Positions 14,222-62,835 of a DNA stretch of 64,000 nt are shown piece by piece. Where the stretch lies: positions 806,001 through 870,000 of the forward strand of contig NW_026855294.1 in NCBI RefSeq assembly GCF_026571515.1, given 5' to 3'. The DNA is from Ruditapes philippinarum (Eukaryota). Position 1 is the stretch's first letter. Each line of letters opens with the position of its first letter. The position numbers and the translations under genes are program-made. Below the pieces are notes generated by a model. It had not been told where the DNA came from. It saw nothing but the letters and a program-made list of their open reading frames with translations, and did no database searches.

Positions 14222-14863
14222 GTATGGCTTTTAAGAAATGTTTTGATGATATAGTTAACAGTGACTTTTAAAGTAAAAACTGTTGTGGGAAAAAGAAAAC
14301 TTGTATGTTATATACGCAGTAATAGTACATTTGAGTGCTAACAACAAACTTATTGCTGCTTTGAGTCGTGGGTTTGAACCTTTTGCTTATAAGTATCATA
14401 TTCATGGAAGTTGCCATGACTGCTTTTGTCTGAAATTTATTTTGAAGGAGATGTTGATACTCTGTATATTAATTTAGTTTAATTTTTGTTTTTAATTTGA
14501 AGTTAAACTTATGTCTTGGATTTTAATGTTGTAAAGTATGGAAGAAATATATATGATGCAAATTACCATTACGTTAACGTTTTATCACCCCTTAGAGTGC
14601 TGGTGTCAATAATTACTTATTACTAAATATGACACTAGTATAGGGGCAAACTAACCTTACCTGTGAAGTTTTACCAAGCTCGAACCTGTTGGCTGTGCAC
14701 ATTTGTATTTTGATATTAATATGCTTGAAACAAATAATGGACTGCTCCAGATTGCAGACAAGGCAAAAAATTTTTTTTTTAATTTTGGTAATAAAATCGT
14801 TAATGAACAATTTGGGGCTTTGCTATCTCTATAAGTGTGTATATATTTTTCTGTCTATTATAG

Positions 14864-21379: not shown

Positions 21380-22861
21380 CTGTAAAAGAACAGTGTAAAA
21401 AAAAGTACAATGGTATACTAATAGATACCTTTATTTAAACAATATGTAACCTCTACTGTAAGACCACCTCCTTTGAAGATCTGTTTCAGTTAAATATTGA
21501 ACAAATATATTGCATTTCAGTTTTATTTTAACTTTTGCCTTGTGACCATCTTTTAAATAAAATTTGGAGTTTTATCTAACCACCACCTGTCTTAAAGGTC
21601 TGGTTCTTTCTATTTACAGTTTATATATTGTATTTAAAGTTTTATTAACCTTTGTCTTAAGACTACTGGCCATTATCATTTCAATTCAACGTAAAACAAA
21701 TATTATATATAATTGTATAACAGTTTATTCTAATCTCTGGATAAGGACCACCTGTATTAAACCAATTCAGTTTTGGTGTAAACATATTGTATGGAATAGT
21801 TAATTTAACCTCTAAAGACAACCTGCATTAAAAGACCACTATCCATATAATTCGAACACTGGTCTTTGTAGACAGGGATCTCTATAATCTAAGAATTATG
21901 ATTACAAAAGTCAGTAATTAGTGCAATTTATATGATATGTTAATTCCAATGTTTCCGTCTGCATTCACTTTCACGTGTTGGAGAACAATAAACTTTGAAG
22001 CGTAGGTTTTTATGTTGGGGATTTGCCTAGAATCCAATACATTGTACAAATGTCCATTTTATGACCAATTTTGATGGAAAATTGACACTTTTAATGGGAG
22101 AAATTTGTTATTTTAAGCGAAAATAATGAGTCTGTGTGAACATATTTTCATCAGTTTATTACTACACTGGAAGCCTGCAATTTCATATTTGTTATTATTT
22201 CCTGTAACTATTTATTATTATTTTCATAGCTTCATATAAAAATTTTATGAATTTCACTCGTGAATGAAGCGTATAGTTGCTAGTGGTCACGTGTCATGCC
22301 TTTTCATATTAGTAAATAAATGATTATTAAAAAAAAAAAAAAAAGAGGAGAAAAGAATGGAGAAACTTTTAATTTGATAAATATATCAGTGGTCCAATTT
22401 GAATCTCAATAATAAAATATAATGGTTATTAAAAATATAGAAAAAAAAGAAAATTATGATATTATTTTAAGGATGCATATCATAAGGACTGCATAGTAAA
22501 TTAAGTAAAAGTTAAATAAGTGTCACTGGAAGCCTTTCATTTACATGTATAGAGTAAAAGCAATATAAACTTCTAAAGGAACATTTTCCTGCACTCTTGT
22601 TTTTATAGAAACTATATAGAAACCTTTTTCAAGAACTAAAATTAACAATAAATTAAAAGATTAGGAGGGGAGAAAAACACATCAAATATATTTTAAGTAA
22701 ACTAATAAAGTGGTACAGAACAAAATAATATGCTGCTATTTTATTGAAGGTTTTATCAAGCAAAAATTTTCTGCTTTTTAACCAGGTTTTCAACGAAAAC
22801 CGGGTTATTGTAATGCCGAAGTCGGCGGGCGGGCGGGCGGGCGGGCTGGCGTCAACTTTTG

Positions 22862-23447
22862 GTTTCCGCTCAATAACTTTAGTTTGCTTAGGCCTATTGA
22901 CACCAAACTTGGTGTATGGGTAGCTTATATCAAGAGGCAGCTTGGGATTGCTACCCAGGTGTCTGTGATCAAGGTCAAGGTCACTGTTACTAAAAATAGA
23001 AATTCAGTTTCCGCTCAATAACTTTAGTTTGCTTTGGCCTATTGACACCAAACTTGGTGTATGGGTAGCATATATCAAGAGGCCGCTTGGGATTGCTACC
23101 CAGGTGTCTGTGATCAAGGTCAAGGTCACTGTTACTAAAAATAGAAATTCAGTTTCCGCTCAATAACTTTAGTTTTCTTTGGCCTATTGACACCAAACTT
23201 GGTGTGTGGGTAGCTTATATTAAGAGGCCGCTTGGGATTGCTACCCAGGTGTCTGTGATCAAGGTCAAGGTCACTGTTACTAAAAATAGAAATTCAGTTT
23301 CCGCTCAATAACTTTAGTTTTCTTTGGCCTATTTACACCAAACTTGGTGTATGGGTAGCTTATATCAAGAGGCAGCTTGGGATTGCTACCCAGGTGTCTG
23401 TGATCAAGGTCAAGGTCACTGTTGCTAAAATAGAAATTCAGTTTCCA
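22862..23447 (+). repeat. 4 x 145-bp tandem array inside the Helentron 5' region
   Basis: GTTTCC(GCTCAATAAC) recurs at 22862, 23007, 23152, 23297 and 23441. The copies are nearly identical. Confidence 0.95.
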
Positions 23448-24742
23448 TGTAATTGCTTCATTTTGCATGTATTGATTGTGTTGCTTTCAAATGAATGCTT
23501 TGTATCCATGTTGCTTTGTATCTGTAAATGTGTAGTACCCTTATATATCATGCATTTGTTACGGTGCCCTTGCTGAATTGATCAATATCCAATTATTGCA
23601 ATAGAAAACAAACTATCTGTCAAAAGAAATAAAGAAGCTAAAAGCTTATATTTAATCTATTTTATTTAATAATTACATCTGTATCAATTCAGCAAATGTG
23701 ACTTACCTCCTATAGGTGGGCACTGGAAACAAAACCACCTTACTAAAAGCTTGAGTGCAAATAGTCGCTTGTTGACATTGTCATTTAACCCCTGTTTGTT
23801 ATTGTGTGTTTGTATGTGAAGGCTGCGCATTATGCTAGTGTAGACATTGTTTCTTTAATAACTTTTTACATACATATTTAAAGAATATTTCAAAAAGAAT
23901 ATTTCTAATATACTTTTGCACTGTACTTTTGGCTAAATCTTCTTGCACTGAACAAGGGCATGGCTTAGTACTATTTAATGTGCGATATGTAACTGTAAAG
24001 TAAACATTTTCCATCTGCAATCACAGCATACTGCTTCTGCCTTTAAAACGCTAGTATACACACATTTGCATTCAAGCTTTATTATAATATTCTGTAGTTT
24101 GAACCTTATAGTAAGCACAGTAGTGTAGTTGGTGCAATGCATGTTCTTCATTTGATTTAAGAAATAGTTGTCTTTTGGACATGCTGGAAAGCACATCAAG
24201 ACACTTTTTCATTTTTCCACACAACCCTTATTAAATCGTAGCACAATCATTTAATATTACAAAAGTGACTGGTTTTATTTGCAAATGTCTGCATAAAACC
24301 TGTTAATGAAGTTAGACATGGTGGTGGTTTTGGCTAAAAGTCACTTTTACATAAATATTCCTTATTTTGTCTGCTCTAAACAAAAGATCTCTGCATTTTA
24401 TTTGATTTAAACTGCTGCATACATTGGTCAGTGTCTTTATTAGCATTTTGGTATTCAGTAAGTCCTCTGAAAAGCATGTTTATATAAAAGTGTATTTTGT
24501 TTAAAGCAGACAGTTTATAATCACAGTTCACATAGCAGCTTTATTTCTATTTCAGGCATCATTTGATTCTAACTTCATCATCATTATCTGTAATAAACCT
24601 TTCACTAACAGCTTTATTTCAGATAACACAGAATTTTATTTTTAAGATGGCAATAGATATGAATTCAGAGTAAACGTCCAACATTTACAAAGTTTTCCAT
24701 ATTATACACATATTACTTTGTATTTGCAGATAACATATAAAA

Positions 24743-25219
24743 ATGGCAAGTAACATTAATGATCTTAGAAAATTTATCTCAGAGTCTGTGTGTGATATTG
24801 ATATTCATTTGAAGGCAGCGGGATATGACATGTTTGCTGCTGATAGACAAGCAGGAACTCAGACCCTGGAATTGATTAGGAGTAAAGTAAAAGAAATGGA
24901 GGAGAAATCCAAGCAACGGATTTCAAACATTGAGAGGTCCATGCACTCTCTTGAGCACCAGCTTAGAGTGAAGGATCAGCGCAATTACCATCTGGAGAAG
25001 GCCAATGAACGGCTTACTGCTGAAAACAACAGGTTAAAGCAGGAATTGGATGACTTCTTTCCAACCATCGCAGACACAAGTATTCTTAATGTTAGCATGA
25101 ATGCCTCCCAGGATGATTCAGATGACAAGAGTGAAATTGCTGGCTCAAGTAGTCATTTTGGTGCCTGGCAGGATGATGTCAAGAGTGACACTCCAGACAA
25201 GAAACAGAAAACCGCATAG
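24743..25219 (+). CDS. Helentron accessory ORF: 158-aa orphan coiled-coil protein with an acidic tail and a C-terminal basic NLS-like motif
   Basis: AAAATGG start context with acceptor TTTGCAG ending at 24729. Higher GC than the flanks. Heptad pattern (LEHQLRVKDQRNYHLEKANERLTAENNRLKQEL) and PDKKQK near the C-terminus. Confidence 0.7.
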   Translation: MASNINDLRKFISESVCDIDIHLKAAGYDMFAADRQAGTQTLELIRSKVKEMEEKSKQRISNIERSMHSLEHQLRVKDQRNYHLEKANERLTAENNRLKQELDDFFPTIADTSILNVSMNASQDDSDDKSEIAGSSSHFGAWQDDVKSDTPDKKQKTA

Positions 25220-25652
25220 ACTGTTGTCTCTAATCATTTTGCACAAACATTATGTTAATAGATATTATACCTGAAAGCATCAGACTCATTTGTACCTGCT
25301 GAATACTTATGTTTGTATTGTTACATCAAGCAGATGAACTTAGTGGGAAAAAACATTTATCGTTGAAAATTTAGTGGGAAAAAACATTTATCGTTGAAAA
25401 TTTGTTTGAACTCTAAAACAGTGACTGTCTACGTGTTGATTAATTGATTGATTCTTTGTATTGCTTATATATTTTGTTTTGCATATTGCAGGCAAAAGGT
25501 GACTTGTATAGTTGCATACAGAAGGAGTGTATGTCTGTGATTTATTCACTTTATGTTAAGAAATGTTTGCTTGTTGTTAAAATTGTATATGTAAATTGTA
25601 AATTGTATATGTGTACTAATAGTTTTGAATAAATCTTTTTTCAGATTGAACA

Positions 25653-28600
25653 ATGCCTAAGTTGAAGAAAAAATCAGATAATCAAAAGCACGCCCAAGAC
25701 AGGGAGAGGAAGCGCAGGATTTCTTTACAAAATGTATCTCAAACTAGTGACACTGACACTTATCATAATGATATGAACACTGTTTCTGTTAATCAGTCAA
25801 CACAACATTTTGTTTTCAACGCTGTGGACTTAATGTGGCAAATTCAAAAGTGTCTGGATATAAATACACGTTTCAACAGTTCATTAAACATAATACAAAA
25901 TCTCCAAAGCAGAATATCTCAGGAAATTCATGAACCTACAATATGTATTAAAGTTAAAGGGGATGGAAACTGCTTTTTTCGATGTATTGCTTATGTGCTA
26001 TGTGGAGACGAAAGCTTTCATACCCAAGTTAGACAGACAGTGCTTTTACATATGTGCTCCAGTTCCCAGATACTAACTTCACTCTTGCCACCAAATACAA
26101 CCATGTCACAATACATAGCTAGGTCAAAGATGTCTGAAGATAAAGTATGGGCAACACAGGTTGAGATAATATCCACAGCTCACTTATTACAGACTGACAT
26201 ATATACATACTCAAAATATGGACATGAACTGAAATGGTTAAAACATACTGCACAGTTCGTAGACAATACACTCCAGATAAATGAAAAAGCAGTTTATTTA
26301 GACCACCATACAGGTATTCATTTTGATGTTGTACTTGATGTTGGAACATCAGTGTCTAGTGATTCTACAGCTGAAAAAACTTTTCTGTGGAGTGAATTGT
26401 TGAAGCAAGAAAGTCGGCAAATATACAATAAGTACTACAAGCAGGCCCAAAGACAATGTGCTGAGTACAAAAACAAAGAAAACAGAAGCAGGAATGAAGG
26501 ACGCTCTTCAAAAAGAACCAATAGTGAGTACAGACTGTTACAAAACCAGCGTAGGAATGAAACACGTTCTTCCAAAAGAACTGACACTGCATACAGACAC
26601 TCAGAAAACCAGCGTAGGAATGAAACACGCTCTTCCAAAAGAACCGACAGTGCATACAGACACTCGGAAAACCAGCGTAGGAATGAAACACGCTCTTCCA
26701 AAAGATCCGATAGTGCATACAGACACTCAGAAAACAAGCGTAGGAATGAAACACGCACTTTGAAAACTACCAGTAGTGACTACAGACAATTACAAAACAA
26801 GCGTAGGAATCAAACACGTTCTTTGAAAAGAACCGATAGTGACTACAGACACTTGGAAAACCAGGGTAGGAATCAAACACGTTCTTTGAAAAGAAACGAT
26901 AGTGACTACAGACATATGGAAAACCAGGGTAGGAATCAAACACGTTCTTTGAAAAGAACCAATAGAGACTACAGACATATGGAAAACCAGGGTAGGAATC
27001 AAACACGTTCTTTGAAAAGAACCAATAGAGACTACAGACATATGGAAAACCAGGGTAGGAATCAAACACGTTCTTTGAAAAGAACCAATAGTGACTACAG
27101 ACAGTCCGAAAATGAAGATAGAAATGAAAACCGTAAAAGAAAACGAAGCAATAGTCAATATAGACAAACAGAAAATGATCACAGAAAAAAATGGAGATCA
27201 TCGTCACATCGAAAGCAGAGAGAATTACTTTTAAAGCGTAAACAAAGGCAGAAAAAAAGGTCAGAGCAATCATCGCTACAAACACAAGTACAGCTATTCA
27301 ATGATCTTTTAAATAGAGGAGATGACTTTGTGTGTACAAGCTGCCAACAGACGTTTTACCAGCACAGTGTCTACACAGTGAGTAGAAAAAGTTTAATCAG
27401 GAAAGGAATATCACCCCAGTTTATAGACAAAGTGTTAACAGATTATAAGAGTGTTTTAAATTCAGAATGGATATGTAAAACCTGTTACAATTACATCTCA
27501 GATGAGAGAATGCCTCCAATGGCTGTTGCCAATGGGTTCTTACTTCCACACCTTCCAGATTCACTATCTTCTCTTAGTCCAACAGAAACAGAGGAGCGAT
27601 GTACAGCATTGAGGATCCCATTCATGCAACTGAAACAACTGGGCATTGGAAAACAGTTTGGCATCTATGGAAACACTGTTAATGTACCAATGAACCCCTC
27701 GAGTGTAGTGTCTATGCTCCCAAGAAGATTTGAACAAACAGAGACTATACACCTTCAGTTCAAGAGAAGACTTCAGTTTAAATCTTCAGTATATTATGAA
27801 ACAGTCAGGCCAAAGGTAATATATGACTTCACCAAATACTTTGTAGAAAACAGTGACTTATACAAAGAAGAGGGAGTTACATTGGATAATGAATGGTATA
27901 AAGAAGCACAGGACAAAAAAGAAATTTCCTTTTCTTCTGTGGAAGATATTGAAAATTTACAAACGGAAGACACTAACAAAGAAAAGCAGGAGAGTACTGA
28001 AGAGGATACTTGGAATGAATTGACCGAAGAAGAACAGGCAGGTGCAGGGAACAAGGACACCTTGATGCAAAATGTTGACTTTGCAGATGATGGTCTTCAT
28101 GCACTGCAGATAGCGCCTGGTGAAAAGAACCATCCAATAAGTCTATTTATGGACACTTTTGCTGAGGAGAAGTCTTTTCCTATCTTGTTTTGTGGCAAAA
28201 AAAGAATCGAAAATATTGAACGGACTGTACCAGTAACTTACAGTTCAATATGTAAAGCAGAGTTAAGGAATGTGGATACAAGATTCTCTAAATCCGTCCC
28301 AAATATGTTTTTCAAACTTAAAAAATTACAGGCATTGCAAGTAAGAGATTTGGCTACAACTGCTCTCAGAAAATCTAAGAATGTTTCATATACTGCGGGA
28401 GAACTGAAAATACCAGAAAACATTCAAAACATCCTACATCATGATGACGGATTTCGATTTCTAAAAACTCTTCGATCTTCTCCACCATACTATCAGACAA
28501 AACAAAAAGATTTGTTTGCCATGATCAACCAGCTAGGCTTGCCAACATTCTTTGCCACTTTCTCTGCAGCAGAAACAAGGTGGCCAGATCTGTTAAAACT

Positions 28601-31600
28601 TCTCTGTAAAAAGTCTGGCAAAACTGTTACTGAACAGGAAATAGTCAACCTGAACTGGATGGAAAAGTGTCAACTGATACAAAACAATCCAACCACATGT
28701 GCTAGACACTTCCATTACAGAACTAAGTTGTTTTTAAACAACTTCCTCACATCAGATATCTCACCTATTGGGAAGGTGGAAGATTTCTTTATCAGGGTGG
28801 AATTTCAACAAAGAGGGTCCCCTCATCTACACTGTTTGTTCTGGGTAAAGGATGCCCCTGTGTATGGCTCCTCTCCAGAAAAGGACATAATTGAATTCAT
28901 TGACAACAATATCAGCACAAGTTCTGATGTTCATGAAGATGCAAAACAGTTTGTACAGTTACAGATGCATCGCCATTCCCAGTCATGTAAGAAGAAAGGG
29001 AAAGAGATATGTCGATTTGGATTTCCCCTCCCACCAATGAAGGAAACTTTGATAATGGAACCATTTTCTTCTGACACGGAAAAGGAAGTTTTGAAAGCAG
29101 CCAAACAGAACTATGAGAAAGTACTGAAAGTGTTAAAAGCACTACCTAAGGATGCAGAACTAACATTTGATCAATTCATTGGACAGTGTGAGCTTACCTA
29201 CGACCAGTATCTTGGCGCTGTTAGGTCATCATTGAAGAGGAAACAGGTACTTCTGAAAAGAGCAGTGAAAGATGTGAGAATGAATGCATACAACTTGAAT
29301 GTATTAAAAATCTGGCAGGCAAACACAGACCTTCAGTATGTGCTAGATCCTTGGGGAGTTTGTGTGTATATTGCGAGTTACATCATGAAATCACAGAGAG
29401 GAATGAGCCTGCTTTTACAGAGAGCAACGGAGGAAGTGAAAAAAGGAAATTTAAAGCTAAGGGAGAAAGTCAGACACATCGCCAACAAGTTCTTAAATCA
29501 TTGTGAAGTCTCTGCCCAGGAAACCGTTTATTTGTTGCTACAGCTTCCTCTCACTCAGAGCTCAAGAAGTGTGATTTTTATAAATACCTCCCCACCAGAA
29601 AAACGTGTAGAAATTCTGAAGCCATTGTCACAAATAGAACATCTTCCTGATAGCTCTACAGATGTAACATGTTCTGGATTGATTGACAGGTATGCTGATA
29701 GACCAAAAATATTAGAACAGCTATGTTTAGCAGAGTTTGCCGCATTCTTTGAAAAAAAACCACGTTTAAAGAAAGAAACTGGAAAAGAAATTCCAACTGA
29801 AATAGATAACACAGACAACAATGTTGACATTGTAACACCAGGCACTGAGATCAAATTGGCAGATGGAAGTCGACTTGTACATCGCAAGACACCTAAAGTG
29901 ATACGCTATGTGAAATTCAATGTATCAAAAGACACAGAGATGTATTACAGAGAACAGCTGATGTTATTCTCACCTTTCAGGGAAGAAATGAAGCTAATGG
30001 GCACATCAGACAGTTTTGAAAGCCAGTATAAACTCTTAGAGGAAAAAATAACCAACAAACGCCATCAATTTCAGATTGGTACAGAAGGTATAGAAGAGGC
30101 TATGAATGCAGTATCAGAAGAAATGATCAATGATGAATTAGATGACATTGCACCAGTTGCCAGGCAGTCTGAAGAAGATGCCGTTTTACAAAAGGAAGAT
30201 CCTGTTTCCATGCTGCAACCTCCACATGAAAAATACAAGCACTTTGATATAGGGTCTTTTAAAGACTCACCAGAAGCAAATACTCGGGGATGCATTATCC
30301 AGAACAGAGTGTCAAATGAAGATTTTTTCTCTATGGCAGTGTCTTTGAATGAAGAGCAAAAGAAGTTTTTTTATGAAGCATTACACAGAATTAAGACAAC
30401 AACTGAACCATTTTACTTCTTCCTTTCCGGTGGAGCAGGAGTTGGAAAATCCCATGTACTTAAGACCATTTATCAGGCCTTGGTTCGTTATTTTGACAGT
30501 GTCCCAGGCGAAAATCCTGATGACATCAAGGTTGTTATTGCTGCACCAACTGGTAAAGCAGCGTACAATGTACATGGGAATACGCTGCACAGCCTTCTTG
30601 ACATTCCACCCAGCAATGCTTTGAGATCTTATATACCACTTAGTAATAGCACTCTCAATACCTTGCGCAGCCGTTTTTACAAGCTAAGAGTTTTAATCAT
30701 TGATGAAGTATCTATGGTCGGAGTCAACCTCTTTAATTTTGTATGTAGCAGACTGCAACAAATCTTTGATTCCACCAAGCCATTTGGAGGTATTTCACTA
30801 ATTCTTGTTGGAGATCTCTTTCAGCTGAGACCAGTTGGTGATTCATGGATTTTTGAGAATGATTCTGTTCAATATGGTCCATTATTGAGAAACCTTTGGC
30901 AGGACCTAGTCCAGCTGTATGAACTGACAACCATAATGAGACAGAAGGATGATGCCATATTTGCATGCTGTCTCAACCGCATTAGAGAGGGAAAGCAGAC
31001 AAAGGAAGACATAGATCTTATTGCATCAAGGCTATGTACCAAGGAAGACACTAATCAGTGTATTCACTTGTTTAGCACCAACCACCTGATTGACGAACAC
31101 AATCAACAAGTGTTATCATATAAGGAAGGACTGACATTCATTTCTGTTGCTGTGGACTATATACAAGGTGATGTGTCTGTTAAAGACAGGACAGCAGTTT
31201 TAGACTTTGTTAAACACTTAGAAGTTAGGAAAACTCAGAATTTGAGATTTGAACTCCAACTTAAAGAATCTGGAAACTACATGCTAACACACAATATCAG
31301 CACAGCAGATGGATTAACCAATGGTGCCAGTTGTCAAATAGAAATGGTTCAATGTTTTAATAATATACCGACAGTAGTATGGGTCAAATTTCAGCCAAAT
31401 GAAATAGGATCAGTCACAAGACAGGAACATAAGCACTTGTATGCATACAGTTCTGCAATTCACAAATCATGGACACCAATACAAAAAATCCAAAAAGAAT
31501 TTCAAACATCCAAAAACAGCAAAGTAAAAATAGTGAGAAAACAGTTTCCTCTGCAGGCAGCAGAAGCCATATCTATTCACAAATCTCAAGGTTCAACTCT

Positions 31601-32435
31601 TGATGAAGCAGCTGTGTCCTTCAGAGGTAGAATTCAGAAACACATGGTCTATGTAGCATTAAGTAGAGTCAGAACTTTAAAAGGACTTAAACTTCTTGAC
31701 TTTGATCCTAAGAAGATTACTGTTGATTATCTTGTTCAGCAAGAAATGCTAAGAATGCGGAATGAATCATCATTGCAGTGCACACAGTTCTGTCTTCCAA
31801 AGTCAAATTTTACAGTTGCATGTCATAATTCAAGGTCACTTCACAAGCATATCAACCAGTACAGGAACGACACAAGACTCACTGATGTTGATGTCCTGGT
31901 TTTACAAGAAACATGGGCATTAAAGGATGACTATAAACACCATTACCACCTGAATACTTTTCAGGATCCCTATTGCATCTACACAGAAATTGATCGGAAG
32001 AGACCACACTCTGGAACATTCATATATGTTAAAATAGGGCTTAACATTGTATCTAGTGTTCAGGCAACAGAGCCTGGCCTGGAAAGTGCATGTCTTCTGA
32101 TAGAAAAGAATGGACACCAGTTTGAAATCATAAGTGTATATTGCCATCCACCTGGAAACACATCTAAAGTTTGTAAAACAGTACAAACACTCAGAACTCG
32201 AACAGTGCCATGCATTATAATGGGAGACTTTAACATTGACCACTTACACCTCTCAAAAAGTGAGAAATTATGTCAGTTCATGGAAAGACATTTGAAAGCA
32301 AAGCCACAGATCTCTGATGAAACAACAGATTACCATTCCCTACTGGATCAGATATACTCTTCAAAACCAGCCATAAGTGCAGGAGTCCTTGAAACTGTTT
32401 GGAGTGACCATAAGATTGTGTGGGCAGCCATATAA
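25653..32435 (+). CDS. Helentron RepHel polyprotein (OTU cysteine protease, 21-aa repeats, Zn-finger, HUH Rep, PIF1-family SF1B helicase, AP-endonuclease), 2260 aa
   Basis: OTU motifs GDGNCFFR...WAT..EI...HFD. Zn motif CTSC...CKTC. HUH motif VEFQQRGSPHLHCLFW and catalytic YIASYIMK. Helicase motifs GGAGVGKS, IIDEVSM, GDLFQL, MRQ, SIHKSQG, YVALSR. EEP/APE motifs HNSRSL, LQETW, GDFN, LDQIY, SDH. No stops or frameshifts. Confidence 0.96.
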   Translation: MPKLKKKSDNQKHAQDRERKRRISLQNVSQTSDTDTYHNDMNTVSVNQSTQHFVFNAVDLMWQIQKCLDINTRFNSSLNIIQNLQSRISQEIHEPTICIKVKGDGNCFFRCIAYVLCGDESFHTQVRQTVLLHMCSSSQILTSLLPPNTTMSQYIARSKMSEDKVWATQVEIISTAHLLQTDIYTYSKYGHELKWLKHTAQFVDNTLQINEKAVYLDHHTGIHFDVVLDVGTSVSSDSTAEKTFLWSELLKQESRQIYNKYYKQAQRQCAEYKNKENRSRNEGRSSKRTNSEYRLLQNQRRNETRSSKRTDTAYRHSENQRRNETRSSKRTDSAYRHSENQRRNETRSSKRSDSAYRHSENKRRNETRTLKTTSSDYRQLQNKRRNQTRSLKRTDSDYRHLENQGRNQTRSLKRNDSDYRHMENQGRNQTRSLKRTNRDYRHMENQGRNQTRSLKRTNRDYRHMENQGRNQTRSLKRTNSDYRQSENEDRNENRKRKRSNSQYRQTENDHRKKWRSSSHRKQRELLLKRKQRQKKRSEQSSLQTQVQLFNDLLNRGDDFVCTSCQQTFYQHSVYTVSRKSLIRKGISPQFIDKVLTDYKSVLNSEWICKTCYNYISDERMPPMAVANGFLLPHLPDSLSSLSPTETEERCTALRIPFMQLKQLGIGKQFGIYGNTVNVPMNPSSVVSMLPRRFEQTETIHLQFKRRLQFKSSVYYETVRPKVIYDFTKYFVENSDLYKEEGVTLDNEWYKEAQDKKEISFSSVEDIENLQTEDTNKEKQESTEEDTWNELTEEEQAGAGNKDTLMQNVDFADDGLHALQIAPGEKNHPISLFMDTFAEEKSFPILFCGKKRIENIERTVPVTYSSICKAELRNVDTRFSKSVPNMFFKLKKLQALQVRDLATTALRKSKNVSYTAGELKIPENIQNILHHDDGFRFLKTLRSSPPYYQTKQKDLFAMINQLGLPTFFATFSAAETRWPDLLKLLCKKSGKTVTEQEIVNLNWMEKCQLIQNNPTTCARHFHYRTKLFLNNFLTSDISPIGKVEDFFIRVEFQQRGSPHLHCLFWVKDAPVYGSSPEKDIIEFIDNNISTSSDVHEDAKQFVQLQMHRHSQSCKKKGKEICRFGFPLPPMKETLIMEPFSSDTEKEVLKAAKQNYEKVLKVLKALPKDAELTFDQFIGQCELTYDQYLGAVRSSLKRKQVLLKRAVKDVRMNAYNLNVLKIWQANTDLQYVLDPWGVCVYIASYIMKSQRGMSLLLQRATEEVKKGNLKLREKVRHIANKFLNHCEVSAQETVYLLLQLPLTQSSRSVIFINTSPPEKRVEILKPLSQIEHLPDSSTDVTCSGLIDRYADRPKILEQLCLAEFAAFFEKKPRLKKETGKEIPTEIDNTDNNVDIVTPGTEIKLADGSRLVHRKTPKVIRYVKFNVSKDTEMYYREQLMLFSPFREEMKLMGTSDSFESQYKLLEEKITNKRHQFQIGTEGIEEAMNAVSEEMINDELDDIAPVARQSEEDAVLQKEDPVSMLQPPHEKYKHFDIGSFKDSPEANTRGCIIQNRVSNEDFFSMAVSLNEEQKKFFYEALHRIKTTTEPFYFFLSGGAGVGKSHVLKTIYQALVRYFDSVPGENPDDIKVVIAAPTGKAAYNVHGNTLHSLLDIPPSNALRSYIPLSNSTLNTLRSRFYKLRVLIIDEVSMVGVNLFNFVCSRLQQIFDSTKPFGGISLILVGDLFQLRPVGDSWIFENDSVQYGPLLRNLWQDLVQLYELTTIMRQKDDAIFACCLNRIREGKQTKEDIDLIASRLCTKEDTNQCIHLFSTNHLIDEHNQQVLSYKEGLTFISVAVDYIQGDVSVKDRTAVLDFVKHLEVRKTQNLRFELQLKESGNYMLTHNISTADGLTNGASCQIEMVQCFNNIPTVVWVKFQPNEIGSVTRQEHKHLYAYSSAIHKSWTPIQKIQKEFQTSKNSKVKIVRKQFPLQAAEAISIHKSQGSTLDEAAVSFRGRIQKHMVYVALSRVRTLKGLKLLDFDPKKITVDYLVQQEMLRMRNESSLQCTQFCLPKSNFTVACHNSRSLHKHINQYRNDTRLTDVDVLVLQETWALKDDYKHHYHLNTFQDPYCIYTEIDRKRPHSGTFIYVKIGLNIVSSVQATEPGLESACLLIEKNGHQFEIISVYCHPPGNTSKVCKTVQTLRTRTVPCIIMGDFNIDHLHLSKSEKLCQFMERHLKAKPQISDETTDYHSLLDQIYSSKPAISAGVLETVWSDHKIVWAAI
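26463..27200 (+). repeat. Coding 63-bp (21-aa) tandem repeat, ~11-12 units, inside RepHel
   Basis: Consensus xYRHxENQxRNxTRSxKRTxS. GTAGGAAT recurs with a 63-bp period (26551, 26614, ...). Confidence 0.92.
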
Positions 32436-32894
32436 GTTACAAAGTACATCAATACGGTACATGTATTATTATTAAGAATTACTAGCTGGGTTTGTTTCGG
32501 CCACTACACAAACATGTATGAATCAGTAATTTGCATATGGGGAAAAATTGGACTGAAATTACTGACTCCTTATATATCTGTGTAATGTCAGGAACAAGCC
32601 TTATAATTGATTTATTTCATCAACCACTTTTCCTAATCATTTATTTATTTCAGTGTTTCACCATATCCTTAGTACTAAACCTGTATGATTTCTACTAACC
32701 CTACATAATGAGATCACAATCTGCATGCAACCAAAATAATGGCATCATGTGTTTTCTTCACTCCCATCTTTTATTTTTCATTCTGTCAAATCAATACTTG
32801 GACGTTGAAAACCTGGTTTCGTCGCATTGCGGCGCTTCTTGTTCTCTTTTGTTCTGTTTACAGTTAGATGGCCCCCTATCCCTATTCGGTAGTG

Positions 32895-32945
32895 GGGACG
32901 GACAAAGCGGCTACTATATGCTCACCCTTAGGGGAGCATAAAAAT
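32895..32945 (-). mobile_element. Isolated 5' terminus of another HINE-like element
   Basis: GACGGAC remnant, TATGCTC-ACCC-TTA-GGG-GAGCATA hairpin and AAAA, the same layout as the termini at 35171, 52804, 56322 and 62835. Confidence 0.5.
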
Positions 32946-33964
32946 CTATTTACATCAGTGTGGTGACCTTGACCAAAAGTAGACCTTTACCAAAAGTTAC
33001 CACCCAAGATGTCTACAAAATATTAAAGACATCAGTCATTTAATAAAGGCTGTATAAGCAAGACAGCACTGGTAACCTTGACCCCTTGTCTTTCCAAAAT
33101 TACAAGACCACTGAAGGTCTATACCAATCAAACATGAACATCATCAATTAATAAAACCTGTTTAAGCAAAAGTGTAGAGGTCTATTTTGAGCAATGGTGA
33201 CCTTGAACTTAGTGGCCCTAACTCATCATAAAGTTTGAGGATTACTCAAGGGATCTACTCACCAAATATAAAAGGCAACAGCTTGTAAATAAGGCTTCAT
33301 AAGCAAATTGTTTCAATCCATTTCTAGCAAGGATGGTCTTGTTCAATTTACCCCCAAAGTTAGATAACCTCCAAAAGTAAGTATTATATAGGGAGATAAT
33401 TAAAAAAAAAAAAGTTAGGCAGAATAATGGTTCTTGCATGGACACTGCACTTCCTATCACTGGCTGAAGATTTAATCAAGTTCTTTCAACATTTTTTATT
33501 CTCCAAACAAGTGCATTTACATTATAAAGGAATGCCATTCAAAATCTAAGTAATGTATTATGTAGAGTAATTGTTCTTTGACAATGCATTTCTTCTCACA
33601 TGTCTATAATTATGAGAAATTTCAATGCATCATTGATTACTGTTTATACTCTGAACTATCATTATTTACTCAAGGGAATATATTAAAAAGTTATGGCATA
33701 GTAGATTTATTTCAATCTATAATCCAGACTAGAGCATTATAGACATCTACATTTTTCTTTTACTTTCTTCTTATTTTTTATTATTATTTTTTTGTTAATA
33801 GAACACATATATCATGCCTACTTCCTCATGTTGTCCTTTTTAAATTATAAACCACAGCTATTTTTTCATTTGCAAAATTTGTAAAGCAGAAATGTTATAA
33901 TGGTGAAATATAAATAACTATTAATTACCAGTCTGCTGTTTGACATTTTTATGACAAAGGAAAA

Positions 33965-35171
33965 CAAGAGGGCCATGATGGCCCTGAAATCACTCACCTG
34001 TATATAGGCCCCTAGGCCAAGGCCAATTTTAAACCAGGGGCTTTTATTTGACAAACTTGGAAGACACCCATTAGAAGATGTTTCATGATAAATATCTAAG
34101 CTCTAGCTCTTTGGGGTTTATATCAGAAGAGTTTTAAAGTTTTTACTATATACATATAGGGTAAAACAATACCCCCATCACAGAGGGGCCAATTTTGACC
34201 CCAGGGCTTTTATTTGAACAAACTTGGTAGACACTCACTAGAAGATATTTCATGCTAAGTCTCTAAACTAGCTCTTTGGGTTTTTTATAAGAAGATTATT
34301 TAAGTTTTTACTATACACAAATAAGGAAAATCAATGACCCCTGGGGCGGGCCAATTTTAACCCAAGGGCCCTTATTTGAACAAACTTGGTAGACACCCAT
34401 TAGAAGATGATTCATGCGAAATATCTTAGCTAGATCTTTGGGGTTTTTAAAAGAAGATTTTTTAAGTTTTTACTATATACATATAGGGAAAAACAATGAC
34501 CCCCTGGGGCTTGGCCAATTTTTATCCCAGGGCTTTTATTTGAACAAACTTGGTAGACACCCATTAGAAGATGTTTCATGCTAAATATCTTAGCTCTAGC
34601 TCTATGGGGTTTTTAAAAGAAGATTTTTTTAAAGTTTTTACTATATACAAAATCAGGAAAATCAATGACCCCCTGGGGTTCAGCCAATTTTTACCCCAGG
34701 ATATTTATATGTACAAGCTTGGTAGACACCCACCAGTAGATGTTTAATGCTTAATATCTTAGCTCTAGCTATTTGGGGTTTTTAAAAGAAGATTTTTTAA
34801 GTTTTACTATATACAAATAAGGAAAATCAATGACCCCAAGGGGCGGGACCAATTTTGACCCCAGGGCATTTATTTGAACAAACTTGGTAGAAACTGACTA
34901 GATGATGTTTCATGCCAAATATTTAAGCTCTAGCTCTTATGGTTTTCTGAAAGAAGATATTTTAAGTTTTTTCTTTCGGATGCCATGGCTTGGAATTAAA
35001 TTCTTTGAACAATTTTTAAAATTGACTACCAAAGGAACATTCCTGTGGAGTTTGGATGAAATTTGCTTAGCGGTATATGAGGAGATGTCGTTTAAAGTAA
35101 AAGTTTACGGACGGACGCCGGACGAAAAGCGATCACAAAAGCTCACCATGTCACTTTGTGACAGGTGAGCT
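33965..35171 (-). mobile_element. Non-autonomous Helentron-type element (HINE/DINE-like) with a ~6 x 165-bp array
   Basis: The low-coordinate end has AA|CAAG, an AGGGCCAT-G-ATGGCCCT hairpin and CTCACCTG. The other end has GACG repeats and a GCTCACC...TGTCAC/GTGACAGGTGAGC fold-back followed by TAAAAA. CCAATTTT recurs every ~165 bp. Confidence 0.88.
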
Positions 35172-35381
35172 AAAAATATTAACAAACACACATAATTGTT
35201 TAACATTTTTTATTGATACATAATAAAAATTTTGACTTAAGAAGTCAAAAAAAGCACAATAAAGCTCAAAATAACCTTGAACTTTGCTCAAACATGAACT
35301 TTTTGAACATTGTTCAAGAAATAAAACATAGAAATAAAGGCAGATGTGCAAAACTAATATATGATTTGATGTAAATAAATA

Positions 35382-46677: not shown

Positions 46678-47070
<393 letters not shown>

Positions 47071-49617: not shown

Positions 49618-49974
<357 letters not shown>

Positions 49975-50310: not shown

Positions 50311-52804
50311 CAAGATATGTTTGTAAAACATGTATGCCCCCTATCAGCAGCCAATTATTCATGTGATAAGGTAATTATGCATGACTTCTGACCCAGTGAT
50401 CAAACAATTAATAAGGGTTATCAAGTATCTACTGGTCATGACCTTGACCTTTGACCCCTTGACCCAAAACTTAATAGGGGTCATCTGCTGGTCAAAACAA
50501 ATCATCATACAAAGTTTGAAGCTCCTAGGCCTAAGCGTTTTTACTTAATTGATCAGAAACCGTTTTTACTTACAAGGTCAATGTGACCTTGACCTTTGAC
50601 CCCTTGACCCCAAAATCAATAGGGGTCATTTGCTGGTCATGACTAATCACCATGCCAAGTTTGAAGTTCCTAGGCCTAAGGGTTCTTTTATTATTGATCC
50701 GAAACCGTTTTAACATACAAGGTCAATGTGACCTTGACCTTTGACCCCAAAATCAATAGGGGTCATCTGCTGATCATGACCAATCACTATGCCAAGTTTG
50801 AAGTTCCTAGGCCGAAGTGTTCTTTAGTTATTGATCAGAAACCGTTTTTACTTACAAGGTCAATGTGACCTTGACCTTTGACCCCTTGATCCCAAAATCG
50901 AAAGGGGTAATCTGCTGGTCATGAAAAATCACCATACCAAGTTTGAAGTTCCTAGGCCTAAGCGTTCTTAAGTTATTGATCAGAAACCGTTTTTACTTAC
51001 AAGGTCGATGTGACCTTGACCTTTGACCCCTTGACCCAAAACTCAATAGGGGTCATCTGCTGGTCACCACCAATCATCATACAAAGTTTGAAGTTCCTAG
51101 GCCTAAGTGTTTTTAGTTAATTGATCGGAAACCGTTTTTACGTACAAGGTCAATGTTACATGACCTTTGACCCCTTGACCCTAAAAACAATAGGTCATCT
51201 GCTGGTCATGACCAATCACCATACCAAGTTTGAAGTTCCTAGGCCTAAGGGTTCTTAAGTTATTGATCGGAAAGCATTTTTACCTACAAGGTCAATGTGA
51301 CCTTTCCCTTTGACCCCTTAACCCCAAAATCAGTAGGGGTCATCTGCTGGTCATGACCAATCACCATACCAAGTTTGAAGTTCCTAGGCCTAAGGGTTCT
51401 TTAGTTATTGATCGGAAACTGCTTTGACCTAAGAGGTCAATGTGACCTTGACCTTTGACCCCTTGACCCCAAAATCAATAGGGGTCATCTACTGATCATG
51501 ACCAATCACCATACCAAGTTTGAAGTTCCTAGGCCTAAGGGTTCTTTAGTTATTGATCCGAAACTGTTTTTACCTAAGAGGTCAATGTGACCTTGACCTT
51601 TGACCCCTTGACCCCAAAATCAATAGGGGTCATCTACTGATCATGACCAATCACCATATCAAGTTTGTAGTCCCTAGGCCTAAGGGTTCTTTCGTTATTG
51701 ATCGGAAACCGTTTTTGCCTACAAGGTCAATGTGACCTTGACCTTTGACCCCTTGACCCCAAAATCAATAGGGGTCATCTACTGATCATGACCAATCACC
51801 ATATCAAGTTTGAAGTCCCTAGGCCTAAGGGTTCTTTTGTTATTGATCGGAAACCGTTTTTACCTACAAGGTCAATGTGACCTTGACCTTTGACCCCTTA
51901 ACCCCAAAATCAATAGGGGTCATCTGCTGGTCATAACCAATCACCATACCAAGTTTGAAGTTCCTAGGCCTAAGGGTTCTTTTGTTATTGATCGGAAACC
52001 GTTTTTTACCTAAGAGGTCAATGTGACCTTGACCTTTGACCCCTTGACCCCAAAATCGTTAGGGGTCATCTACTGATCATGACCAATCACCATACCAAGT
52101 TTGAAGTTCCTAGGCCTTAAGGTTCTTTACTTATTGATCGGAAACCGTTTTTGCTTACAAGGTCAATGTGACCTTGACCTTTGACCCCTTGACCCCAAAA
52201 TCGTTAGGGGTCATCTACTGATCATGACCAATCACCATACCAAGTTTGAAGTTCCTAGGCCTTAAGGTTCTTTACTTATTGATCGGAAACCGTTTTTGCT
52301 TACAAGGTCAATGTGACCTTGACCTTTGACCCCTTAACTCCAAAATCAATAGGGGTCATCTACTGATCATGACCAATCACCATACCAAGTTTGAAGTTCC
52401 TAGGCCTTAAGGTTCTTTACTTATTGATCGGAAACCGTTTTTGCTTACAAGGTCAATGTGACCTTGACCTTTGACCCCTTGACCCCAAAATCAATAGGGG
52501 TCATCTACTGATCATGACAAATCACCATACCAAGTTTGAAGTTCCTAGGCCTTAAGGTTCTTTAGTTATTGATCGAAAACCGTTTTTGCTTACAAGGTCA
52601 ATGTGACCTTGACCTTTGACCCCAAAATCAATAGGGGTCATCTACTTGTCATGACCAATCACCATACCAAGTTTGAAGTTCCTAGGCCTAAGGGTTCTTT
52701 AGTTATCACTCGGAAACCATTTGGTCTACGGACCGACGGACCGACGGACCGACGGACCGACAAGTGCAAAGCAATATACCCCCTTTTTTTCAAAAGGGGG
52801 CATA
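50311..52804 (-). mobile_element. Non-autonomous Helentron-type element with a ~16 x 145-bp array, in a TTBK intron
   Basis: AA|CAAG plus hairpin, 10-bp subTIRs TATGCCCCCT / AGGGGGCATA, a (GACGGACC)n microsatellite and a 145-bp period (e.g. 51435 to 51580). Confidence 0.92.
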
Positions 52805-52829
52805 ATAAAATATATCACAATAAATTTTA

Positions 52830-53081
<252 letters not shown>

Positions 53082-53451: not shown

Positions 53452-53631
<180 letters not shown>

Positions 53632-54501: not shown

Positions 54502-54740
54502 TACTTCATATAAAGTAAATACATAATATGAAACCAGTCTTTGGAAGGTAAAGATTTTGGTTTTTGTAGAGAGGTGTTGCTATACAGAGGTTTAATCTTT
54601 AGTAAGGTCTTACTTTGAAAAAATAATGAAATTGTTGTTGTAAAGAGTTGATCTACAGAAGGCTACTGTGCAAGATTGCACTATATCTCCAAAAATATAG
54701 TGTAACATGTCAAAATTTTCCTTTATAACATTAAGGTGAA

Positions 54741-56322
54741 CAAGAACTGTCGGAGGACAGTAACGCTCGACTATTCGAAAATTTGTCACAAGGGTGTTTC
54801 ATTGATTATAATAATGCTTACCTATATGAATACATAAAATTGTCCGAAAAGGTACAAACCCTTCAAGTTTCAATACATTCCCTTCAGTACTTATGGAGAT
54901 ACAAGCTTACACACAAAAACTTAACCAAGAATTTATGAATCGAAAAAGGGGCATTATTATGCGAAAAAGAAAATCCGAGTTATGGGACTTGTGCCAATCA
55001 TCTTAGATAATCACAGACAACAAGAGTGTTAAGTTTCAATCCATTCCCTTCAGTAGTTATGGAGATACCAGCTTACACGCAAAAAATTAACCAAGAATTT
55101 CTAAGTCCAAAAAGGGGCATAATTATGTTAAAAAGCAAATCAGACTGATGGGACTTGTGTCAATCATCTTAGATAATCACAGAGAACAAGTGTGTGAAGT
55201 TTCAATCCATTCCCTTCAGTAGTTATGGAGATACCAGCTTACACGCAAAAACTTAACCAAGAATTTCTAAGTCGAAAAAGGGACATTATTATGTAAAAAA
55301 GCAAATCAGAGTTATGGGACTTGTGCCAATCATCTAAGATAATCACAGAAAACAAGTGTGTGAAGTTTCAATCCATTCCCTTCAGTAGTTATGGAGATAC
55401 CAGCTTACACGCAAAAACTTAACAAGAATTTCTAAGTCGAAAAAGGGGCATTATTATGTAAAAAAGCAAATCAGAGTTATGGGACTTGTGCCAATCATCT
55501 TTGATAATCACAGAGAACAAGCGTGTGAAGTTTCAATCCATTCCCTTCAGTAGTTATGGAGATACCAGCTTACACGCAAAAACTTAACCAAGAATTTCTA
55601 AGTCGAAAAAGGGGCATTATTATGTTAAAAAAGCAAATCAGAGTTATGGGACTTGTGCCAATCATCTTAGATAATCACAGAGAACAAGTGTGTGAAGTTT
55701 CAATCCATTCCCATCAGTAGTTAATATGGACATACCAGCTTACACGCAAAAACTTAACCAAGAATTTCTAAGTCGAAAAAGGGACATAATTATGTAAAAA
55801 AGCAAACCAGAGTTATGGGACTTGTACCAATCATCTAAGATAATCACAGAGAACAAGTGTGTGAAGTTTCAATCCATTCCCTTCAGTAGTTATGGAGATA
55901 CCAGCTTACATACAAAAACTTAACCACAAATTTCTAAGTCGAAAAGGGGCATAATTATGTAAAAAAGCAAATCAGAGTTATGGGACTTGTGCCAATCATC
56001 TTAGATAATCACAGAGAACAAGTGTGTGAAGTTTCAATCCATTCCCTTCAGTAGTTATGGAGATACCAGCTTACATACAAAAACTTAACCACGAATTTCT
56101 AAGTCGAAAAAGGGGCATAATTATGAAAAAAAGCAAATCAGAGTTATGGGACTTGTGTCAATCATCTTAGATAATCACAGAGAACAAGTGTGTGAAGTTT
56201 CAATCCATTCCCTTCAGTAGTTATGGAGATACCAGCTTACATACAAAAACTTAACCACAGGGACGCCGACGCCGACAAATGGGTGACTGCATTAGCTCGA
56301 TTATTCTGCGAATAGTCGAGCT
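54741..56322 (-). mobile_element. Non-autonomous Helentron-type element with a ~9 x 166-bp array, in a TTBK intron
   Basis: AA|CAAG, an ACTGTC-GGAG-GACAGT hairpin, perfect 13-bp subTIRs GCTCGACTATTCG / CGAATAGTCGAGC, (GACGCC)n and a period of ~166 bp. Confidence 0.92.
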
Positions 56323-56789
56323 AAAAACAGCATTATTACTGGCATGCAAGTAGTTCCCATACAAAAGCTGCAGTTATTTGATATATATTTTTAGTATGCT
56401 CACTCACTAAAAAATTTTTGCTACACACTAATATTTGGCTTTTGACACAAAATCTTGGAAATCTTGATGTGTTCTTAATACAGAACGTCTTTAGGTAGAA
56501 GACCTGGTATTGTCTCATTTTGTATGCAGAGAAGCAGTTCTTACACACAAAATATATCCCAATATAATTATACTATGTTGTTATATCAGTCCTCTGCTCC
56601 ACTTATCATTGTTTAAGAGACCATTTGTCTGGAGTTTAATAAACATGTCATTCAGAATATATGTGTGTACAGGAAATACTTGGATGCCAGAATACTAAAA
56701 CCCTTTCTCTGTCAAATTGGATGCCAGAATACTAAAACCCTTTCTCTGTCAAATTAAAGTGACTGTTTCTAAAGATAAAATATACTTAC

Positions 56790-59843: not shown

Positions 59844-61872
59844 TGGTATATTAACCTCTTACTATTACATCTGTATGCCAATATTACAGAATCTTACACA
59901 AACAGCAATACAACCATTAACTGTGCTACTCTTGACAAATTGATCATAATTCACAAATTAAGTTTGATGGTTCAATAACTACATAACACTTTTATCAGCA
60001 GAGAATGGCAAGTCAATATCTGTGGTAAAAGTAACAACCAGTAATAGCGGCTAGTCATGGACAAAATGATCCAGAATTTGCATAAAACATGATGCCTGCA
60101 AGCTATAAAATATAAGATTTACAGGAACATATAAATAAGAAATCAATAAGTCTCTGAAATCTGTCTTAAATGATAATTGAGAAATTATATGCAGTACTTG
60201 TTACATTCATTGCTGCGGTATTTTTACCCTTCACATCCTGGATATATTAAATGGACTTGTCCAGCTAAAATATTTGGAACTGTCCAATATTAAATTTTGG
60301 GGATATCAAGACAAAAACTGTTGGATGCAGACTGGGTCTACACTAGTGGCAAAGGCTAATCACTTTCACAGTTCCAGCAGGGAACCATTCAACAATTATG
60401 GAATCAATATTTGACATCAGAAGTTTTATCTGGTACAAGTTATTTTGTGTATAGGAAAGTATATCCCAGAATGATATGTATACAGACTTTTATTGGTGAC
60501 AATGGTAGAATCAATACTTTAACCAAAATATGTCTCAACATATACAAAAACAGAAGAAATCTGAGTGGAGATGTAATTATCTGATCTGAGTGGAGATGTA
60601 ATTATCTGATGTATTTTTCTACAGTATGTAACCTGTCTTTTACTGTTTTAATATAAATCTCCTACTATATTGCGTTCAATTAACTTCTGACAAAAGACAC
60701 ATGGAAGGAAATTAATTTAAAATATGTGTACAAGCAACATAAAACATTCCGAAGAAATGGTCTGACCCCACAACACATCATTATCACTATGTACTTAGAA
60801 AACAAAATGTGATAATGTCCTTCTCTCTAAGGTATATAAACTTAATTACCCCTGCACCTTAAACCACGTCAATAGCATTTACAGTCAGTCAATTATATAC
60901 ATGTATATAGGACTTTGTGATTAGACAAACCGGACAAGACTAGACTCAACTTTAAAAGCGTTTCCATATATGACAACCATCTAAAAGTTATCAATTATAT
61001 AACCATAATGCAGCAAAAAATTCAGTAAAATACCAGCAGACTTGTCAAATAAATCAGCAGACACTGTTTTCTTAATTAAGGAATAAAACATCAACCTGCC
61101 ATATCATCAAAATATCATTATTGATATTTTCTAACACTGCAATACATGTATTTACCTTTGTGCATGAAAACAGTTTAAGCAAGAAAGTCTAAATCAATGG
61201 TTTGGTATAAAGCACTATTTACAGAGAACAATCCCAGCCTGAAGAAGAAATAAAATTTGATTAGTATCCATCAATGCTGGCCCAGTTTTGTACATAAAGT
61301 CAATAAAGCTTGATTAAAGGGGCAAGAAATCACCGACAAGTCTTCTTATATTTGACAGATGATGTTTCGCAAGTCTACCCATGTTTCCAGAATATTTCTT
61401 TTATAGTATCAGCTTTTATACTGAAATCTAAAACCTACATGAAATAATGTCTTTATTGATAATAATATCTCTAAAGAAAACTTTAGTTTTTTTTCTCTAA
61501 ATGTCTTCATGGGAACAATAGTGTGGGCAGCACCAAATACAGTGATACCAGTATAATACTTACTAAAAGAAAAAAAAAGAAATGAAAAATTTTGTAATTA
61601 AAACAGATAGACCTATAAAAGGGGATAGATGGATGCTTGTTTATATAACGTGCAATGATGATGCATCCATGAAAAAAAGGTTACTTATTTTGTTTGTTGA
61701 AAACTGCCCAACCCATTAAAATATTTAAAGGCTTAAAACCTGTAAAACTTGTTTTTCCACCAAACACATCAAAGTAACAACCTTGCAATCAAGGGTTTAT
61801 AGGACATTACATATCATGAGCCCTTCATCACATTGTCTCATGTTTAGAAAAACAGACTGAAATATGAACAAA

Positions 61873-62835
61873 CTAGAACTGCCACTGTCATGGCGTGAAT
61901 ACCCCCTGCATACCAGAATCAACAGTGACCATTTAGATTCACCCTGCCAAATCTGAGGTTACAAAGCCAGTGCATTTCTAAGATATGTATTCTCCATGCT
62001 TCAAATGTGAAAATTTCAAAATCAAATTTTTTTAGTCAAGGCCCCTGTGACCTTGACCTTTGACCCATTGACCTCAAAATCAATAGGGGTCATTTACTAA
62101 TCATTACTAACCTCCATGCCAAATATGAAGACTGTGGGTCAAAGAAATCTCAAGTTATTGGGCAGACAAGCTTTTTTTAAGTCAAGGCCCCTGTGATCTT
62201 GAACTTTGACCCAGTGACCTCAAAATCAATAGGGGTCATCTACTAATCATGACTTACCTCCATGCCAAATATGAAGACTGTGGGTCAAAGGAATCTCAAG
62301 TTATTGGGCGACAAGCTTTTTTTTAGTCAAGGCCCCTCTGACCTTGACCTTTGACCCAGTGACCTCAAAATCAATAGGGGTCATTTACTAATCATGCCTA
62401 ACCTCCATGCCAAATATGAAGACTGTGGGTCAAAGGAATCTCAAGTTATTGGGCAGAAAGCTTTTTTTTAGTCAAGGCCCCTGTGACCTTGATCTTTGAC
62501 CCAGTGACCTCAAAATCAATAGGAGTCATCTACTAATCATGACTAACCTCCATGCCAAATATGAAGACTGTGGGTCAAAGGAATCTAAAGTTATTGGGCA
62601 GACAAAGTGTTTTAAGTCAAGGTCCCTGTGACCTTGATCTTTTACCAAGTGACCTTAAAATCATTAGGGGTCATCTACTAATCATGACTAACCTTCATGC
62701 CAAATATGAAGACTGTGGGCCAAAGGAATCTCAAGTTATTGGGCGGACAAGGAAAAACCGACGGAAGGACGGGGAGACGTCCGGACAAGCTGATTCCAGT
62801 ATACCCCCCCATACAACTTTGTTGTGCTGGGGTAT
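61873..62835 (-). mobile_element. Non-autonomous Helentron-type element with a ~5 x 145-bp array
   Basis: AA|CTAG plus hairpin, imperfect subTIRs ATACCCC.../...GGGGTAT, degenerate GACG repeats, and GTCAAGG recurring at 62035, 62181, 62326, 62471 and 62616. Confidence 0.85.

Follow-up and report, generated by a model that had tools for sequence, protein, structure and literature searches.

A 145-bp array inside an autonomous mollusc Helentron shares spaced boxes with the arrays of HINEs that have unrelated termini, and may be an amplified cis-acting module

In the window analysed here (the whole stretch of 64,000 nucleotides), an autonomous Helentron, hereafter element A, carries inside its left end an array of four 145-bp monomers that align without gaps to the monomers of two HINEs with unrelated termini and share boxes with them. 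The spacing of these boxes is held across further monomer families, and the monomer occurs at very high depth together with the left-end microsatellite. On balance, and judging from sequence comparison, we lean towards the view that array A arose by tandem amplification of a selected cis-acting module and is not passive cargo.

Element A begins with a perfect 16-bp subTIR at 22780, whose sole reverse-complement partner in the whole window lies at 32803, and is made up as follows:
22780..32843, plus strand: element A, autonomous Helentron with both termini present and a 16-bp subTIR pair
22780..22808, plus strand: left subTIR with inner inverted repeat (hairpin; fold z=-2.26), a T run before it
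22824..22850, plus strand: (GGCG)n microsatellite of the left end, from sequence
22862..23447, plus strand: array A, 4 x 145 bp, inside the left end, by TRF
22871..22920, minus strand: outermost core box of array A, bipartite, 50 bp, by profile
22971..22984, minus strand: GTGACCTTGACCTT box, DR0 on the plus strand, with further copies at 23116, 23261 and 23406
24743..25219, plus strand: ORF1, 158 aa, coiled-coil-like, no family above the Pfam cut-off
25653..32435, plus strand: RepHel ORF, 2260 aa, uninterrupted, with Pfam matches to OTU, DUF6570, Helitron_like_N (Rep), PIF1 helicase and AP-type endonuclease
32803..32843, plus strand: right subTIR, short palindrome and CTTGTT end, from sequence, fold and the match end of other copies

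The left end runs from the T run through the subTIR hairpin and (GGCG)n to the four monomers. The array thus lies to the right of the left subTIR and ahead of the ORFs, from which no second right end separates it, and so it belongs to the autonomous element. Three metagenome copies of element A (L260-L262), 90-92% identical to it, have match ends at 32842-32853 and different flanks; T runs flank element A at both ends and recur in the 3' flanks of these three copies. SubTIRs of at least 11 bp, a 5' inner inverted repeat and a 3' palindrome identify the element as a Helentron, as does the presence of the PIF1 helicase and a C-terminal AP endonuclease within the single RepHel ORF (PF05970 E=4.9e-25, PF03372 E=3.9e-08, PF14214 E=7.9e-28). 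Rep motif 2 reads FFIRVEFQQRGSPHLH and is of the Helentron type by the criterion of PMC4067079 (S between G and P, F/Y-x-R before), though its middle residue I is absent from the residues listed in the available text of that paper. Among 7998 scored sequences, 1012 were RepHel homologues at E<=1e-50, the named ones coming from molluscs (oysters, mussels, scallop, periwinkle), cnidarians (corals), echinoderms and a hemichordate. No RPA ORF was found in element A; ORF1 is coiled-coil-like instead. The RepHel N-terminus contains a basic coding repeat of 63 bp (21 aa; 26490-27175, 9.7 copies), and coding repeats of 69, 114 or 138 bp occupy the same place in many homologous loci. About 15 bp past the right end lies a short truncated HINE-like left end (32858-32942, minus strand), a hairpin with a microsatellite remnant.

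Judged by the accessible text of Thomas, Vadnagara and Pritham (2014, PMC4067079), who described HINEs as deletion derivatives of Helentrons, some of them with central repeats, element A resembles their Helentrons in its S-type motif 2, C-terminal endonuclease, OTU domain, subTIRs, 3' palindrome and T-rich ends. That text, on the other hand, contains no account of a full-length mollusc element, nor of central repeats with boxes in common or at constant spacing.

The window (GC ~33%) contains five arrays with periods of 145-166 bp, four of them in HINEs:
50311..52805, minus strand: HINE B, 145-bp array at 50439-52722, 15.9 copies (TRF, sequence, fold)
61871..62835, minus strand: HINE C, 145-bp array at 62027-62751, 5 copies (TRF, sequence)
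33963..35175, minus strand: HINE D, 165-bp array at 34021-34971, without GTGACC box, core box undetected by the profile
54739..56327, minus strand: HINE E, 166-bp array at 54865-56257, core box present, without GTGACC box

All four consist of a left subTIR with inverted repeat, a microsatellite, central repeats and a right subTIR with palindrome, hold no ORF, and bear subTIRs unlike those of element A. HINE B lies in an intron of a host protein kinase gene (43768-53600, minus strand; weak Pfam Pkinase match), whose exons we take to resemble tau-tubulin kinase. Besides, a large host-gene exon with a CYTH domain at its end was noted at 11989-14271 (plus strand), and a degenerate, older HINE-like array at ~15484-16500, with a D-like subTIR at 15484, a weak core match at 15961 and a GTGACC-type box at 16341.

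An earlier note on this DNA had reported a 145-bp array in the autonomous element with boxes in common with arrays B and C, and the array itself is borne out by TRF (22862-23446, period 145, 4.0 copies, 97% matches). Further minus-strand core boxes start at 23065, 23210 and 23355, and those of array A score 34.8-39.4 with a profile that had A itself in its training set. Exact GTGACCTTGACCTT occurs four times on the minus strand of the window, always in array A; its 14 plus-strand occurrences comprise 13 in array B (50.4-52.7 kb) and one in array C (62.0-62.8 kb). The boxes claimed to follow the same order in A and B are real and in register, since the monomers of A, B and C are all 145 bp long, their alignment is gapless, and CCAAGTTTG, AGTTATTG and CGGAAAC stand at identical positions in A and B. 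Another of them, TAGGCCTAAG, was rejected as a general box, as it is present in only 1/4 monomers of array A. In array C, where GTGACCTTGACCTT is exact once, five copies appear when up to 2 mismatches are allowed. Overall, A matches B at 82/145 and C at 81/145 positions (56-57%), while B and C agree at 106/145, and the matching positions cluster beyond permutation in every pair (A-B p=0.006, A-C p=0.027, B-C p=0.0018). The divergence of the intervening bases holds for A against B (19/50 spacer positions identical) and against C (21/50) but not for B against C (45/50), a pair that differs more in the core (38/59). This shared spacer points to B and C being in part recent relatives, through either recent common descent or the exchange of half-monomers. 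Two further claims stood as made: the three arrays face the same way with respect to the hairpin and microsatellite of the left end, and the subTIRs differ. A significant single-strand fold was not detected for monomer A (z=-1.53).

To place these arrays among others, we drew on DNA outside the window. A scan of prokaryotic genome records for two boxes 142-172 bp apart returned 144 loci, mostly bacterial low-complexity or CRISPR repeats, which were dropped; families were drawn only from AT-rich, animal-like contigs, some with HINE structure. Five such records hold the search 12-mer 65, 6, 57, 10 and 26 times, against 6, 0, 0, 0 and 3 times for the reversed control. TRF on the window and ~0.52 Mb of such contigs (period 125-190 bp) gave 68 arrays in 43 families, 38 of them outside the window, one coding repeat inside the L170 ORF having been excluded before clustering. 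Of the 40 test families, 38 come from animal-like DNA in MAG records and about half from one contaminated record (G001). A 50-bp profile trained on A, B and C alone recovered the core box in 11/40 test families (p<=0.05), and an iterated leave-one-out profile in 29/40 (p<=0.03), E included; the remaining 11, D among them, failed the core profile, and allowing a gap rescued none. Across 411,453 bases there were 140 core matches, compared with 1 in block-shuffled DNA, for a profile built partly from the same contigs. The core box is bipartite, with a CAAGTTT-like half followed ~33 bp on by a GTTAT/GATAT-like half. Two metagenome contigs contain single core-box matches (L327 9844 and L289 9461, scores 21.9 and 24.8); that of L327 is directly followed by a tetranucleotide microsatellite and stands without an array, a DINE-1-like single-core arrangement.

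The second box, GTGACCTTGACC (DR0-type, <=2 mismatches), lies on the same strand as the core in 23/32 core-bearing families, on the opposite strand in 4, and has no same-strand copy in 9/32, its frequency being inflated because the contigs were chosen by this very GTGACC box. Where it shares the strand, it sits 62-65 bp upstream of the core in 13/23 families, which 0 of 200,000 uniform draws reproduced. The distance from box to core has a MAD of 1, that from core to next box a MAD of 10, and the period (125-179 bp) correlates with the former at 0.19 and with the latter at 0.86. Mean identity across families is 0.30 in the spacer (shuffled 0.26), as opposed to 0.51 and 0.47 in the core halves (shuffled 0.27 and 0.31). 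In 11/32 rows, a microsatellite follows the outermost core box within 11-29 bp (regular-expression matches, one spurious); several rows that lack this match end at the contig end or in a further variant monomer. Outside this sample, a hand count on the oyster CL6 arrays in the available supplement of PMC7492417 puts the distance at 65 bp, with no difference in the spacing inside the core. Hence the comparison proposed in the earlier note, of box conservation against spacer divergence, shows conservation to be non-uniform and box spacing to be held in DNA from several sources.

The monomer families are homologous and related by descent, so they do not count as independent, and descent alone has to be weighed as a cause. 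All the monomers could go back to one old HINE-carried repeat whose boxes persisted without function through uneven mutation, conversion among TGACCT sub-repeats and recombination of half-monomers. Residual spacer similarity in 18/78 pairs, the near-identical spacers of B and C and the abundance of families without one or both boxes (as in D and E) are all consistent with such passive descent, as is the account, in the accessible part of PMC5139131, of BIV160/Cg170 as an old, widespread family that has kept two motifs. We nevertheless consider it unlikely: the spacer has drifted close to shuffled identity, yet its length is held to ~1 bp when the other segment varies by a MAD of 10 bp, the core box keeps its place beside the microsatellite even where termini are unrelated, and oyster CL6, which its authors call unrelated to other clusters in the text available to us (PMC7492417), fits the same geometry. 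The proposal of the earlier note that the arrays are functional cis-modules is supported in part, by non-uniform conservation, held spacing and the reading of one box as a DR0 element; of the functions it suggested, nucleosome positioning is not supported as the cause, and family-specific iteron binding is weakened.

The iteron reading takes the boxes for RepHel sites, bound by the N-terminal basic repeats or the zinc-finger region and multiplied for loading near the origin. It would account for an array inside an autonomous element right beside the hairpin and for a bipartite core box with fixed internal spacing, and it recalls the 90-bp core of DINE-1 beside a microsatellite, which the accessible text of PMC2374699 proposes to matter for transposition. 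Against it, the boxes are common to families that differ in their subTIRs, which are presumed to be the family-specific signals; this weakens family-specific binding in particular. The GTGACC box, moreover, fits the consensus of a host factor and is found again in a virus whose initiator is unrelated. For the boxes at large, we therefore rate this reading somewhat below passive descent, with the core box remaining a fair candidate for a RepHel site. Selection of the arrays mainly as nucleosome-positioning units, with the boxes marking dyad and edge, is the least probable of the alternatives, for although core-to-core spacings peak at 145-149 (19) and 165-169 (20) among 77 spacings below 600 bp without period filter (monomers of one array not being independent), near the 145-147 bp of the core particle and the ~165 bp of the chromatosome, and although the distance from box start to the invariant AA of the core is held at ~74 bp, half a core particle, a 10-bp AA/TT/TA periodicity reached p<=0.05 in just 2/43 families (median p 0.54; 0/5 in the window) and periods form a continuum of 125-179 bp under the 125-190 filter.

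The preferred reading, a selected cis-acting module, gains a candidate partner from the box itself. The other strand of the invariant GTGACC box is AGGTCAAGGTCA, a DR0 sequence as defined in the available text of PMC7724306, which describes binding of this element by NR6A1/GCNF; it is exact in A, B, C and 19/43 family consensuses. The suggestion of AGGTCA-type nuclear-receptor repeats in the earlier note thereby holds at the level of sequence, and we regard the box as the likely, predicted site of a host nuclear receptor. Because the box is common to families with unrelated termini and recurs as a half-site cluster in densovirus terminal repeats, we favour a host factor over a RepHel site specific to one family. 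HINE B monomers contain DR0, DR1 and, in most, a perfect inverted half-site pair with 3-bp spacing that overlaps both. This inverted arrangement, which we take to be estrogen-response-element-like, is found in only 3/43 families.

The viral cluster comprises nine same-strand TGACCY half-sites within ~100 bp (~150-260) in three densovirus records (L001, L003, L005; Denso_VP4), which are related and count once, as one lineage; the following 2.5 kb of these records hold no such half-sites. Their terminal repeats include an exact 19-mer of HINE B, the only matches in the viral collection. Densoviruses replicate by an HUH-type initiator. Like the Helentron left end, these lepidopteran-type densoviruses have a terminal hairpin and short tandem repeats, followed by the TGACC half-site cluster; unlike the arrays, the cluster is viral, lacks the 145-bp period and points the other way relative to the terminus. 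The likeness is likely a case of convergence. A RepHel scan of viral contigs gave 7 pattern matches and 0 relatives, and our literature searches found no description of a densovirus ITR with a nuclear receptor or enhancer.

At parvoviral origins, short tandem repeats next to the nick site are the binding place of the initiator, and a host cofactor binds close by. By analogy, the hairpin and microsatellite of element A may serve as the loading site of RepHel, while the bipartite core box and the DR0-type box ~64 bp upstream of it would recruit proteins, the one on the DR0 box probably a host nuclear receptor, that help the adjoining end act as a transposition origin or promoter. HINEs with such arrays would arise as internal deletions of autonomous elements and selection would act between element copies, with monomers apparently recombining in halves, given that B and C share the box-spacer half and A and B the core half. 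Extended to its furthest, the analogy would make the left ends of invertebrate Helentrons, those of molluscs included, parvovirus-like origins composed of a hairpin, tetranucleotide initiator-loading repeats and a spaced module, at which a nuclear receptor of the host germline (NR6A/NR5A/NR2-type) would bind ~74 bp from another factor and, with it, license transposition; much bivalve satellite DNA would then be amplified module that scatters many thousands of nuclear-receptor sites, and densoviruses would have converged on the site cluster. We put this generalisation forward as a speculation with a small chance of being right in full.

Contig depth over 23290-26450 bears on the abundance of the module. 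Runs that contain the element bear labels that include marine sediment and mollusc metagenome; one run, presumed to be RNA, provides no sign of expression. In four runs, the monomer reached 8,390-1,235,114 and the element interior 7-468, so that the monomer was ~700-5000x deeper than the interior in 4/4 runs (values being summed contig depth and not copy number). In each of the four, loose contig ends upstream of the monomer joined it to the microsatellite just as in element A, and the contig ends listed included none in which the array runs into the right end, as it would in a deletion derivative. Most simply, these data would reflect a non-autonomous partner family of element A that is very abundant.

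Much of the wider picture is already in print. HINE structure, 140-180-bp arrays, fixed orientation, satellite links, conserved segments and a remark on nucleosome length can be found in the accessible texts of PMC7492417, PMC8268682, PMC3879986, PMC5139131 and PMC4067079, and the idea that such arrays seed satellite DNA, also voiced in the earlier note, had been published for HINEs (PMC7492417, PMC8268682, PMC3879986). Closest is Cg_HINE of Crassostrea gigas (Vojvoda Zeljko 2020, PMC7492417), described in the available text with a left flank of subTIR, inverted repeat and 4-nt microsatellite, a 140-180-bp array in fixed orientation and a right flank, and with two conserved segments in otherwise dissimilar monomers. 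A search of the accessible supplement gave 727 matches of the 12-mer on both strands; CL6, with monomers of 146-147 bp that hold the GTGACC box, is among the matches listed. That study, in the same text, could connect none of the HINEs with an autonomous element and regarded most of the monomer clusters as unrelated, whereas here the array lies inside an autonomous element and a common geometry joins families with unrelated termini. In the Pearl/CvA, DTC84, BIV160 and Cg170 satellites, the core repeats likewise adjoin an ACGG-type microsatellite, and two motifs conserved despite divergence were read as a sign of constraint, with length tied to chromatin (PMC3879986, PMC5139131, as far as available); these motifs were discussed there along CENP-B-box-like ideas and not as nuclear-receptor elements. 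There may be overlap between our boxes and the two BIV160/Cg170 motifs. In Drosophila, the DINE-1 core (Yang and Barbash 2008, PMC2374699, accessible text) is a conserved stretch of ~90 bp in the microsatellite-bearing left block A, suggested to matter for transposition; it is single and apart from the species-specific central repeats, in contrast to the repeated core box, to which it is likened by position. Mite HINEs without the DINE-1 core are mentioned in the available text of PMC4067079. The two-box geometry across families, its DR0 reading, an array-carrying autonomous Helentron of molluscs and the densovirus parallel did not appear in the literature searched, though subscription papers, Repbase reports and figure images may hold part of them; nor did these searches return a description of the box motif, among the titles listed, or of Helitrons together with a nuclear receptor and AGGTCA.

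Whether HINE central repeats and bivalve satellites are captured filler or intrinsic sequence, and why their motifs are conserved, are questions left open in the accessible texts of PMC7492417 and PMC3879986. An intact autonomous element with a left-end array, together with a geometry common to families thought unrelated, favours an intrinsic origin. The box geometry provides exact targets for binding, spacing and deletion experiments, and if the DR0 box is bound, the high-copy elements would provide mollusc genomes with nuclear-receptor sites in large number and at dispersed places.

The module is not universal and is not required by all Helentrons. Among 72 metagenome RepHel loci, a box-bearing array lay near the ORF in one only (L288), and both L288 and L170 were rejected as autonomous elements with a 5' array since each has a HINE end of its own between array and ORF. 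At L172 and L169, the array follows straight after the ORF and no HINE-type end motif separates the two, but the contigs stop inside the array and that of L169 points the opposite way, so that these loci lend weak support to an array in an autonomous element; L283 may be an array-less element. At no other locus were both termini convincingly shown. Helentron variants carry OTU at the C-terminus or, instead, a herpes-tegument-type protease domain (PF04843) at the N-terminus (L169 5631-6035, L168 7270-7755; L288). Finally, HINE arrays and intact Helentron ORFs turn up in animal-like DNA within several prokaryotic records (G001/G002, G003/G005, L023-L037, L114), a contamination of public MAGs; G001 has 12 RepHel matches, and in L023-L037 HINE-like units are arranged head to tail every 825 or 896 bp.
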